64,000 nt of DNA from Eledone cirrhosa (Eukaryota), in contig OZ024751.1 of NCBI GenBank assembly GCA_964016885.1, positions 8,680,001-8,744,000 of the forward strand. Reading direction: 5' to 3'. This document shows positions 32,161 to 37,670 of this stretch, piece after piece; the stretch's first letter is position 1; the number at the start of each line of letters is the position of its first letter. The notes under the pieces were generated by a model, which was given only the letters and a program-made list of their open reading frames with translations, was not told the DNA's origin and made no database searches. Both the position numbers and the translations under genes were made by a program.

Positions 32161-32923
32161 ATATATATATATATGTGTGTATATATATATATATATATTC
32201 ATATATATATATATATATATATATGTATATATATATATATATATATATATTCATATATATATATATATATATATATATATATATATATATATATATATAT
32301 ATATATAAATTGAAACAAAATGAAAACGAAATTTCATTTCTCACTCTTAGTATGGCACTTACTTAAATGTAAGTATGCATGTATACGTACATACATATAT
32401 GTATACAGAGGTACAGTAGCATGCACATATATATATATATATATACATATATAGATACATATGCATACAGGTACACATACATATATGCACGTATCAGTTT
32501 AGCGGCGCTAACGTCGCTTTGTTCGTTTGTAAACAAACTGAACAGCCTGAATTTATGCCATACGGTGTTAAGGCAACCACGTCACCTTTTTGTTCAACAC
32601 TGACACAGGAACGATGTACTAGTTTCAAGCTTGTTAGCTATCATCAGCACCGTTTACCCATCTGCCAGATAGTTGAACGTTCGAAAGTATATACTTTCCT
32701 TATGAAAATTAACGGCTGAGCAGCCTAATTTGCATATTGAGTGAGTTAAATCGGTCAGGCATACCGTGCATGCTACTGTACGTCTGTATACTATATGTAT
32801 GTACGTATACATGCATACTTACATTTAAGTAAGTGCCATACTAAGAGTGAGAAATGAAATTTCGTTTTCATTTTGTTTCAATTTATCGTTTTCGGTATGC
32901 CTGACCGATTTAACTCACTCAAT

Positions 32924-32931
32924 ATGCAAAT
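32924..32931 (+). promoter_or_regulatory. Octamer motif ATGCAAAT conserved upstream of each array HHR
   Basis: atatgcaaattagg lies ~80 bp upstream of each HHR in both subfamilies; its function is inferred. Confidence 0.4.
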
Positions 32932-33004
32932 TAGGCTGCTCAGCCGTTAATTTTCATAAGGAAAGTATATACTTTCGAACGTTCAACTATCTGGCAGATG
33001 GGTA

Positions 33005-33049
33005 AACGGTGCTGATGATAGCTAACAAGCTTGAAACTAGTACATCGTT
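33005..33049 (+). ncRNA. Minimal type I hammerhead ribozyme with palindromic stem III (representative array copy)
   Basis: aacggtg-CTGATGA-tagc/taacaa/gctt-GAAA-ctag-TA-catcgtt; 7-bp stem I, stem III actagt. Confidence 0.88.
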
Positions 33050-36000
33050 CCTGTGTCAGTGTTGAACAAAAAGGTGACGTGGTTGCCTTAACACCGTATG
33101 GCATAAATTCAGGCTGTTCAGTTTGTTTACAAACGAACAAAGCGACGTAAGCGCCGCTAAATTGATACATGCATATATGTATGTGTACCTGTATGCATAT
33201 GTATGTATATATGTATATATATATATATATATATATATATATGTGCATGCTACTGTACGTCTGTATACATATATGTATGTACGTATACATGCATACTTAT
33301 ATATATATATATATTCATATATATATATATATATATATATATATAATATATATATATATTCATGTATATATATTCATATATATATATAGCGGCGAAAACC
33401 AACCAAACAGTGAGTGTGTTGTGTTATTAATTCTGTCAATATTACATAAATATGACCCTCCCCAAGTATTACACACACACACACATATATATATATATAT
33501 ATATATATATATATATATATATATATATATATATATATATATATATATATATATGAATATATATGTATATATATATATATATATATATATGAATATATAT
33601 GTATATATATATATATATATATATATGAATATATATATATATATATATATATATATATATATGTATATATATATATATAGATATATATATATGAATATAT
33701 ATATATATATATATATATATATATATGTATATGTATATATATACATATATATATATATATATATATGAATATCTATATATATACCTATATTCATATATAT
33801 ATATATATATATATATATATATATATATTCATTCATATGTATATATATATATATATATATATATATATACATATTCATATATATATATATATATATAAAT
33901 TGAAACAAAATGAAAACGAAATTTCATTTCTCACTCTTAGTATGGCACTTACTTAAGTGTAAGTATGCATGTATACGTACATACATATATGTATACAGAC
34001 GTACAGTAGCATGCACATATATATATATATATACATATATACATACATATGCATACAGGTACTCAATATGCAAATTAGGCTGCTCAGCCGTTAATTTTCA
34101 TAAGGAAAGTATATACTTTCGAACGTTCAACTATCTGGCAGATGGGTAAACGGTGCTGATGATAGCTAACAAGCTTGAAACTAGTACATCGTTCCTGTGT
34201 CAGTGTTGAACAAAAAGGTGACGTGGTTGCCTTAACACCGTATGGCATAAATTCAGGCTGTTCAGTTTGTTTACAAACGAACAAAGCGACGTTAGCGCCG
34301 CTAAACTGATACGTGCATATATGTATGTGTACCTGTATGCATATGTATGTATATATGGATATATATATATATATATGCATGCTACTGTACGTCTGTATAC
34401 ATATATGTATGTACGTATACATGCATACTTACATTTAAGTAAGTGCCATACTAAGAGTGAGAAATGAAATTTCGTTTTCATTTTGTTTCAATTTATCGTT
34501 TTCGGTATGCCTGACCGATTTAACTCACTCAATATGCAAATTAGGCTGCTCAGCCGTTAATTTTCATAAGGAAAGTATATACTTTCGAACGTTCAACTAT
34601 CTGGCAGATGGGTAAACGGTGCTGATGATAGCTAACAAGCTTGAAACTAGTACATCGTTCCTGTGTCAGTGTTGAACAAAAAGGTGACGTGGTTGCCTTA
34701 ACACCGTATGGCATAAATTCAGGCTGTTCAGTTTGTTTACAAACGAACAAAGCGACGTTAGCGCCGCTAAACTGATACGTGCATATATGTATGTGTACCT
34801 GTATGCATATGTATGTATATATGTATATATATATATATATGTGCATGCTACTGTACGTCTGTATACATATATGTATGTACGTATACATGCATACTTATAT
34901 ATATATACATATTCATATATATATATATATATATATATATATATACATATTCATATATATATATATATACATATTCATATATATATATATATATATACAT
35001 ATTCATATATATATATATATATATATATACATATTCATATATATATATATATATATATATATATACATATTCATATATAATATATATATATATATATATA
35101 TATATATATATATATATATATATATGAATATATATATATATATATGAATATATATATATATATATAAGTTATAATAGAATGAAAACGAAATTTAATTTCT
35201 CACTCTTAGTACGGCACTTACCGTTTGTTTACAAATTGACAAAGCGGGCGTTATAATAAACGTCCGCTAAACGGATACGTACATATATGTATGTGTACCT
35301 GTATGTATATATATATATATATATATATATATATATATATATATATATATATATATATATATATATATATATATATATATATATATATATATGCATGCTA
35401 CTGTACGTCTGTATAGATATATTTATGTACGTATACATACATACTTCCATTTAAGTAAGTGCCGTCGAAGAGTGAGAAATGAAATTTCGTTTTCATTCTA
35501 TTACAACTTATCGTTTTCGGTGCGCCTGGCCGACTGAACTCACTCGATATGCAAATTAGGCTGCACAGCCGTTAATTTTCATAAGGAAAGTATATACTTT
35601 CGAACGTTCAACCATCTGGCAGAAGGGTATACGGTGCTGATGATAGCTAAGAAGTTTGAAACTAGTACATCGTTCCTGTGTCAGTGTTGAACAAAAAGTT
35701 GACGTGGTTGCCTTAATACCGTACGGCATAAATTCAGGCTGTCCGTTTGTTTACAAATGGACAAAGCGGGCGTTATAATAAGCGTCCGCTAAACTGATAC
35801 GTACATATATGTATGTGTACCTGTATGTATATATATATATATATATATATATATATATATATATATATATATATATATATATATATATGTGCATGACTGT
35901 ACGTCTGTATACATATATGTATGTACGTATACATACATACTTGCATTTAAGTAAGTGCCGTACTAAGAGGGAGAAATGAAATTTCGTTTTCATTCTATTA

Positions 36001-37670
36001 CAACTTATCGTTGTCGGTGCGCCTGGCCGACTGAACTCACTCGATATGCAAATTAGGCTGCTCAGTCGTTAATTTTCATAAGGAAAGTATATACTTTCGA
36101 ACGTTCAACCATGTGGCAGAAGGATATACGGTGCTGATGATAGCTAAGAAGCTTTAAACTAGTACATCGTTCCTGTGTCAGTGTTGAACAAAAAGTTGAC
36201 GTGGTTGCCTTAATACCGTACGGCATAAATTCAGGCTGTCCGTTTGTTTACAAATGGACAAAGCGGGCGTTATAATAAACGTCCGCTAAACTGATACGTA
36301 CATATATGTATGTGTACCTGTATGTATATATATATATATATATATATATGCATGCTACAGTACGTATGTGTACATATATGTATGTACGTATACATACATA
36401 CTTACATTTAAGTCAGTGCCGTGCTAAGAGTGAGAAATTAAATTTCGTATTCATTCTATTACAACTTATCGTATTCGGTGCGCCTGGCCGACTGAACTCA
36501 CTCGATATGCAAATTAGGCTGCTCAGCCATTAATTTTCATAAGGAAAGTATATACTTTCGAACTTTCAACCATCTGGCAGAAGGGTATACGGTGCTGATG
36601 ATAGCTAAGAAGCTTGAAACTAGTACATCGTTCCTGTGTCAGTGTTGAAAAAAAAGGTGACGTGGTTTCCTTAACACCGTACGGCATAAATTCAGGCTGT
36701 CCGTTTGTCTACAAGTGGACAAAGCGGGCGTTATAATAAACGTCCGCTAAACTGATACGTACATATATGTATGTGTACCTGTATGTATATATATATATAT
36801 ATATATATATATATATATATATATATATATATATATATATATATATATATATATATATATATATGTGCATGACTGTACGTCTGTATACATATATGTATGT
36901 ACGTATACATACATACTTGCATTTAAGTAAGTGCCGTACTAAGAGGGAGAAATGAAATTTCGTTTTCATTCTATTACAACTTATCGTTGTCGGTGCGCCT
37001 GGCCGACTGAACTCACTCGATATGCAAATTAGGCTGCTCAGTCGTTAATTTTCATAAGGAAAGTATATACTTTCGAACGTTCAACCATGTGGCAGAAGGG
37101 TATACGGTGCTGATGATAGCTAAGAAGCTTTAAACTAGTACATCGTTCCTGTGTCAGTGTTGAACAAAAAGGTGACGTGGTTGCCTTAACACCGTACGGC
37201 ATAAATTCAGGCTGTCCGTTTGTATACAAATGGACAAAGCGGGCGTTATAATAAACGTCCGCTAAACTGATACGTACATATATGTATGTGTACCTGTATA
37301 TATATATATATATATATATATATATATATATATATATATATATGCATGCTACTGTACGTCTGTATACATATATGTATGTACGTATACATACATACTTACA
37401 TTTATATATATATAAATGTAAGTATGGGGATTTTAGACATGATCTCTATGTGTTGGTATTTTAACGATAGTTATAGCTCTGATTTATCCAAATTATTGAA
37501 CCCTCTGCCACACATATTGGATATTGTTTATCGTTAATTCGTAAACTGTTTTTCCGATTCTCGATTATTCTACTATATATATATATATATATATATATAT
37601 ATATATATATATATATATATATATATATATAGAGAGAGAGAGAGAGAGAGAGAGAGATAGAGAACAAGAA

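Follow-up and report, generated by a model that had tools for sequence, protein, structure and literature searches.

A tandem hammerhead repeat of Eledone cirrhosa is probably a retrozyme mobilised by a Penelope-like element

What kind of element is a non-coding repeat that carries one hammerhead ribozyme (HHR) motif per unit, and how did it spread? The question is raised by positions 32307-37400 of a 64,000-nucleotide stretch of the Eledone cirrhosa genome (assembly GCA_964016885.1, contig OZ024751.1, positions 8,680,001 to 8,744,000, forward strand), hereafter the window, where an initial annotation had proposed a retrozyme. We conclude that the repeat is probably a non-long terminal repeat (non-LTR) retrozyme moved in trans by a Penelope-like element (PLE) that targets (TA)n. 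This reading is supported by the anatomy of the unit, its copy number and dispersal, 5' truncation, inverted arms, two 3' ends and covarying helices.

BLAST of the monomer resolved the span, described originally as a single tandem array, into three distinct insertions in (TA)n, A (32308-33297), B (33898-34897) and C (35167-37404), with (TA)n between them, each of which opens with an inverted 5' arm (Table 1). Insertions A and B are 99-100% alike and differ in their inversion points; C is about 90% identical to them. All eight hammerhead copies counted before were found again, seven on the forward and one on the reverse strand, as were the two with a mutated GAAA. Four units are complete from cut to cut (466, 497, 461 and 515 nt) and vary in length mainly by the internal (TA)n. 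The unit has a GC content below 50% and is highly self-paired, and the self-complementary blocks named in the initial annotation are present in it. As had been stated, it has no credible open reading frame (ORF): the longest ATG ORFs of the span, in three frames on both strands, are low-complexity frames of 75-112 aa that cross the TA arm, and probe proteins from PLEs and long interspersed nuclear elements gave no match inside the units.

The repeat is abundant and dispersed. A 23-nt motif had 11,188 exact matches in the 3.0-Gb genome, a 424-bp sister subfamily, reached via the fragment at 53031-53330, had 15,926, and the whole intact-core pattern, sister subfamily included, had 23,637; all three reversed controls gave 0. 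The motif is therefore not a chance occurrence, and the genome-wide copy-number check that had been suggested came out in favour of the proposal. By a rough estimate, the family of more than 23,000 intact cores amounts to ~10 Mb of DNA. The first 100 matches of the 23-nt motif fell in 54 regions across the first 68 Mb of one contig (C1), and the arrays were short. These regions, 19 of 30 sister-subfamily loci (overlaps dropped), 50 more and the window made 124 sources in total, a non-random sample of first exact-match sites which, the window apart, lie on one contig. We obtained 97 cut-to-cut units, 58 of them distinct and 422-556 nt long, in 85 sources (some overlapping). Dispersed, non-coding tandem hammerhead units, with this number of intact cores, agree with the retrozyme class initially proposed.

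The main signal, overlooked in the initial annotation, is an insertion footprint of the PLE type. Copies end at two fixed 3' points, after ..CTTA(CATTTA) and after ..CAAYTTA, which are spaced by ~58-64 nt and followed by (TA)n; the copies are 5'-truncated, with scattered 5' starts. The insertions were 5'-inverted in 47 of 89 cases (74 sources), and 41 of the 42 inverted insertions in which both ends were scored (124 sources) paired a short end (END1) with a long end (END2). Every arm longer than one unit runs on into another unit. The flanks, examined for target-site duplication, were mostly (TA)n. PLE insertions are described as carrying an inverted copy on their 5' side, with the tail present at just one of the two ends (PMC8557442; PMC3846280); in vitro, the tail corresponds to the interval between two internal sites at which reverse transcriptase (RT) starts, and cleavage and extension involve both strands of the target (PMC11167929). 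The footprint observed here, with truncated 5' ends, an inverted 5' copy and a one-end tail, is likely to be that of a PLE-mobilised insertion. A rival model for the origin of the inversions is self-priming on an antisense template (PMC3846280, in part).

The motif has the core of a type I hammerhead (CUGANGA, GAAA, UH and stems I, II and III). Stem I has 6-7 bp with covariation, stem II has 4 bp (AGCU/AGCU), stem III is the palindrome ACUAGU, and loop 1 is the remainder of the repeat unit. Among 133 motif copies, a sample biased by the choice of loci, the common subfamily variants affect N7, loop II and bases outside stem I; in the sister 424-bp subfamily a G.U of stem I is replaced by U.G. 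In all common variants, stem II has a mismatched U.U at its base, where a G10.1-C11.1 pair is usual. The helix II base of the axolotl HHR_Amex2 is also U.U, and this ribozyme cleaves and gives circles (PMC7229834, in the part that deals with it). The same U.U base was observed in two hammerheads from Hydra pseudo-long terminal repeats (pLTRs) of this genome, the Neptune-type one having the usual G-C, and in at least six other hammerhead-like families among loci L031-L232. These sequences suggest that the U.U stem II base may be a genome-wide variant.

The Rfam hammerhead search that had been suggested was borne out only in part. At the gathering score no match was found for the motif, and at E<=10 no hammerhead was among the 150 of 234 matches listed for 30500-38000; a 251-nt stretch gave a weak match to Hammerhead_HH9, below the cut-off (18.5 versus 52 bits, E 0.036). 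The Rfam miRNA matches in the span were rejected as artefacts of the TA hairpins.

Analysis of the predicted RNA agrees with these findings. In 13 aligned units, 11 of 136 pairs changed on both sides, compared with 4.5 +/- 1.4 after shuffling (0/500) and 1-7 in slid controls, and these changes include the G.U/U.G swap of stem I; since related units were compared and the structure itself comes from their alignment, this covariation is support and not proof. Without the TA arm, folding z was -3.8 to -5.2 (three units, 60 shuffles), and sense circles folded 27-35 kcal/mol better than antisense ones. Compensatory changes and strand-biased folding support the view that selection acts on the RNA. 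In all four real dimers modelled, the double-hammerhead fold was 0.6-1.9 kcal/mol above the free minimum free energy (MFE) and ~16-17 kcal/mol below two forced single hammerheads, as would be expected for the dimer-type hammerhead initially proposed. The arrays may plausibly give rise to monomer or circle RNA.

We propose the following pathway. Arrays would be transcribed into multimeric RNA, in which adjacent hammerheads would pair via the palindromic ACUAGU stem III to form a double hammerhead that cuts after GUA. Because stem I would hold the two ends of the freed monomer together, the monomer could be circularised by ligation. The PLE protein (RT/GIY-YIG endonuclease) would then nick both (TA)n strands and start cDNA at two internal sites of the RNA, one start site per target strand, which would produce two back-to-back arms; tandem units would result from copying around a circle or along a multimer.

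As the driver we favour, with some reserve, a Hydra-clade PLE. The window carries an intact 758-codon frame (21384-23660, +) with RWR, DKT and CNC-x5-Y, which places it by motifs in this clade, for which PMC8557442 gives, in the part concerned, RWK-like, DKT and CxCX5C motifs and a (TA)n target; Hydra-clade entries for Octopus species, including Hydra-1_Obim, are listed in its supplement. Relatives of this ORF are 95-100% identical to it among 150 scored matches, many with the full 758-aa frame, as in a young family, and Pfam scarcely detects it. The ORF family has two 3' ends ~67 nt apart; the distance is 80 nt in a second Hydra family (family X) and ~88 nt in a third. Family X (linker CNC-x5-C; 22,208 exact matches) is a true pLTR, the 3' terminal part of a Hydra-clade PLE with coding capacity, and it obeyed the rule of one short and one long end in 42 of 44 inverted copies.

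Several points weigh against the conclusion that the repeat is a retrozyme moved by such a PLE. A profile of the unit (nhmmer, E<=10) had no similarity to any of the three Hydra 3' ends, so that no parent or driver was identified, and the Neptune-type PLEs of the genome likewise end in (TA)n. Left unconstrained, the insertion B dimer has as its MFE structure a non-catalytic fold that differs little in energy from the double hammerhead, and the circular ensemble shows a weaker stem I (0.18-0.80). The non-random sampling on one contig and the 13 related rows behind the covariation count on the same side. So do two arrangements of broken cores: an identical broken-core unit is present in both arms of locus L056, and in insertion C units 2 and 4 have TAAA and further variants in common, with units 1 and 3 not matching each other. 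Finally, HHR cleavage is dispensable for PLE insertion in vitro (PMC11167929) and cleavage was seen in just one of nine dimers of Xenopus retrozymes (bioRxiv 10.64898/2026.07.22.740005), both as given in the parts of these papers on the respective assays.

The broken cores and the published assays also speak for a different view, in which the repeat is a non-autonomous PLE passenger whose hammerhead is a relic, either weak or dependent on protein; the template would be multimeric read-through RNA that stays uncut, and neither monomer nor circle would accumulate. L056 and insertion C would fit such templates, PAc inserts from unprocessed RNA with a protein-dependent HHR (PMC11167929, in part), and eight of the nine Xenopus dimers remained uncleaved. 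However, the common variants lie at tolerant positions (with the sampling bias given above), stem I covaries, young arrays are homogeneous (L036 has three identical units), and the axolotl U.U hammerhead cleaves and yields circles. We regard this alternative as possible, though on balance unlikely. Uncut multimers may nevertheless be a template too, because some arrays repeat diverged or broken units in both arms; the mixed broken-core arrays of L056 and insertion C may point either to such templates or to later duplication at the DNA level. Insertion C was also considered as a perfect dimer repeat arising from dead hammerheads; this was rejected, as units 2 and 4 match and units 1 and 3 differ. 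In L198 (2054-3738) two types of unit alternate as abab; the two types are 14-16 differences apart, and units of one type 0-4. The patterns of L036 and L198 fit circles, including dimeric ones, but fit duplication at the DNA level as well. An alternation of this kind that includes TA-tract length was observed in L198, L035 and L105-L110.

A further alternative is that the unit is the pLTR or 3' end of a rare or unsampled coding PLE, and the arrays its by-products. Its footprint is identical to that of the coding Hydra families, Xenopus retrozymes are often pLTR-homologous (bioRxiv 10.64898/2026.07.22.740005, in part), and in L045 a copy is fused in sense to a fragment of a Hydra ORF. That junction is unique and lies mid-ORF, at about residue 695 of 758. 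Among 73 free 5' ends in the 124 sources, 22 adjoin a microsatellite and 44 adjoin unrelated sequence, and a recurrent upstream ORF (RT and GIY-YIG) was found at none (0/73); arms that pass one unit always continue into another unit, whereas family X, a true pLTR, revealed its ORF within the first 30 loci. As no coding sequence is common to the regions upstream of these ends, a plain pLTR is unlikely, and the case named at the outset as refuting the retrozyme, a pLTR of a coding PLE elsewhere in the genome, did not materialise for the sampled PLEs. We consider a rare coding parent quite improbable. In two loci (L039 and L064) the free 5' end is fused to the inverted 3' end of family X; since this is 2 of 73 versus 0.42 expected (P ~0.07), it is only a hint, and a narrow genome-wide junction pattern with little power gave 0 matches for such hybrids. 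Retrozyme copies at L048:3791-5315 and L045:4283-5492 are joined without TA to pieces of Hydra-family ORFs with an asparagine-rich linker, which may reflect either template switching or nested insertion. An upstream sequence shared by L052 and L079 was rejected as coding parent, as it is another tandem repeat lying past a TA tract. This ~580-bp repeat (L052:2900-4120, L079:2900-4130, L203) has (TA)n at its end and is 99% identical between two loci; we noticed in it no hammerhead core of the canonical type.

That the repeat is satellite DNA or a Helitron-like or miniature inverted-repeat DNA element amplified at the DNA level, with a hammerhead by chance, is hardly credible: its tandem units, internal microsatellite and hairpins would suit such an element and the abab arrays (L198) could arise by unequal crossing-over, but the short arrays are dispersed (54 or more sites across the 68 Mb at the start of contig C1), the G.U covariation is strand-specific, and the end pattern, in which 3' ends are fixed, 5' ends are scattered and the two-end rule holds, largely refutes it.

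For the retrozyme moved by a PLE, one may ask how protein and RNA meet. We suggest, very tentatively and with considerable doubt, that a Hydra-clade protein knows the retrozyme by RNA shape alone, with no pLTR homology, and loads two RTs at two sites of a circular or multimeric RNA, a single nicked strand of (TA)n then giving rise to each arm; in some cases two different RNAs would be used (retrozyme and PLE mRNA, L039/L064), and dimeric circles would give abab arrays (L198). If this were true, PLE-driven integration of retrozyme circles would be recorded directly in the genome thousands of times. As young intact Hydra ORFs are present in the same genome, the pairing of repeat and PLE is open to a direct test with the in vitro assay already published for PLEs.

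Table 1. Positions of the hammerhead motifs, insertion arms and related features in the window
Feature	Position	Strand	Remarks
Hammerhead motif 1	32611..32653	-	core intact; predicted cut 32617/32616
Hammerhead motif 2	33006..33048	+	intact; predicted cut after 33042
Hammerhead motif 3	34150..34192	+	intact; predicted cut after 34186
Hammerhead motif 4	34616..34658	+	intact; weakly matched by Rfam HH9; predicted cut after 34652
Hammerhead motif 5	35631..35673	+	core intact, stem II with a single G.U; predicted cut after 35667
Hammerhead motif 6	36128..36170	+	TAAA for GAAA (36155), core predicted inactive; cut position after 36164
Hammerhead motif 7	36589..36631	+	intact; predicted cut after 36625
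Hammerhead motif 8	37104..37146	+	TAAA for GAAA (37131); its unit shares private variants with that of motif 6; cut position after 37140
Insertion A, inverted arm	32308..32766	-	~1 unit; 3' end is END2 (long end) against (TA)n
Insertion A, direct arm	32767..33297	+	3' end is END1 (short end) against (TA)n
Spacer between A and B	33298..33897	.	(TA)n-rich, with ~95 bp of unrelated sequence at 33390-33484
Insertion B, inverted arm	33898..34060	-	stops at END2
Insertion B, direct arm	34061..34897	+	1.8 units, stops at END1; contains the 466-nt reference monomer 34187-34652
Tail	34432..34495	+	~60 nt from END1 to END2, drawn on the reference monomer
Insertion C, inverted arm	35167..35221	-	short; stops at END2
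Insertion C, direct arm	35222..37404	+	~4.3 units of a subfamily ~90% identical to A/B; stops at END1
Foldback fragment	53031..53330	-	short; 424-bp sister subfamily

Other PLEs and hammerhead-bearing elements lie in the window. The element with the intact ORF (21384-23660) has a very long microsatellite in its 3' untranslated region and an inverted partial copy upstream; its pLTR hammerheads are at 6792(-), 19458(-) and 26630(+), with a related one at 52769(+). A degenerate Hydra-clade PLE (38233-39387, -) adjoins insertion C because both use the same TA target; as a parent of the repeat this relic was rejected, together with its relatives near L034, L035 and L040, their 3' end being unrelated. 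Next to it lies a second PLE of another clade (39830-41649, -). A Neptune-type PLE (55334-58295, -) has a CxxxxCxxC linker, GIY-YIG and two flanking pLTRs with canonical minimal hammerheads at 53896(-) and 58680(-), and it ends in (TA)n. Another hammerhead family is represented by an inverted pair at 27345(-)/31016(+), spanning ~27260-31190, and a hammerhead-like core was seen at 31799(+). Elsewhere in the genome, the copies of family X (L145-L182, e.g. L175:3498-6770) are mostly short foldbacks with the 80-nt tail, and its hammerhead has an apparent U3-A8 core swap (UUGAUAA) and long stems II and III.

The repeat is likely a further family of metazoan non-LTR retrozymes. The novelty that had been claimed for it holds for the family, of which we found no description in a literature search that left most subscription journals and Repbase outside, and not for the class, which is already in print (PMC7229834; bioRxiv 10.64898/2026.07.22.740005). 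It is a sizeable unannotated repeat that escapes Rfam. The mover of animal retrozymes has so far been argued from co-occurrence and pLTR homology; here, the insertion ends themselves obey the short-and-long rule of a coding Hydra-clade PLE.

The comparison with known systems draws on parts of the papers cited. The closest are the metazoan non-LTR retrozymes (Cervera & de la Pena 2020, PMC7229834), in particular axolotl Rtz_353/HHR_Amex2. Like them, the repeat is built of tandem units that are AT-rich, self-paired and without coding capacity, and every unit has a single type I hammerhead; it is present in thousands of copies and has a short palindromic helix III; with HHR_Amex2, which cleaves better as a dimer, it has the U.U at the base of helix II in common. 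Its units are longer (422-556 nt versus ~170-450) and have an internal (TA)n hairpin arm, and the strict (TA)n target, inverted arms and two fixed 3' ends set it apart from metazoan retrozymes as described in that part of the paper. Cleavage and circles were demonstrated for those retrozymes, whereas here they are predicted from sequence and folding. The relation of parasite to PLE driver resembles the one put forward by Li, Clavereau & Pollet 2026 (bioRxiv 10.64898/2026.07.22.740005), whose units of 51-972 bp span the present one. Their argument rests on co-occurrence in vertebrates and pLTR homology and ours on the insertion footprint of whole arrays; their arrays are thought to grow locally, and unlike their cases the present unit lacks pLTR homology to the three Hydra 3' ends tested.

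With the Hydra-clade PLEs (Craig et al. 2021, PMC8557442) the repeat has in common the (TA)n target, the hammerhead near the 3' end, the inverted 5' copy and the one-end tail; unlike them, it has no ORF and its unit repeats as itself. Its tail of ~60 nt is longer than the 30-40 bp quoted there for PLEs, but tails are 67-88 nt in the Hydra families of this genome. As in the in vitro reactions of PAc Poseidon (Frangieh et al. 2024, PMC11167929), the tail would be set by two internal RT start sites, and cutting and extension would take place on both strands of AT-rich DNA. PAc Poseidon differs in being autonomous, with an HHR overlapping the start of the ORF, and in using the same start site for both strands, whereas the two arms of the repeat almost always use different ends.

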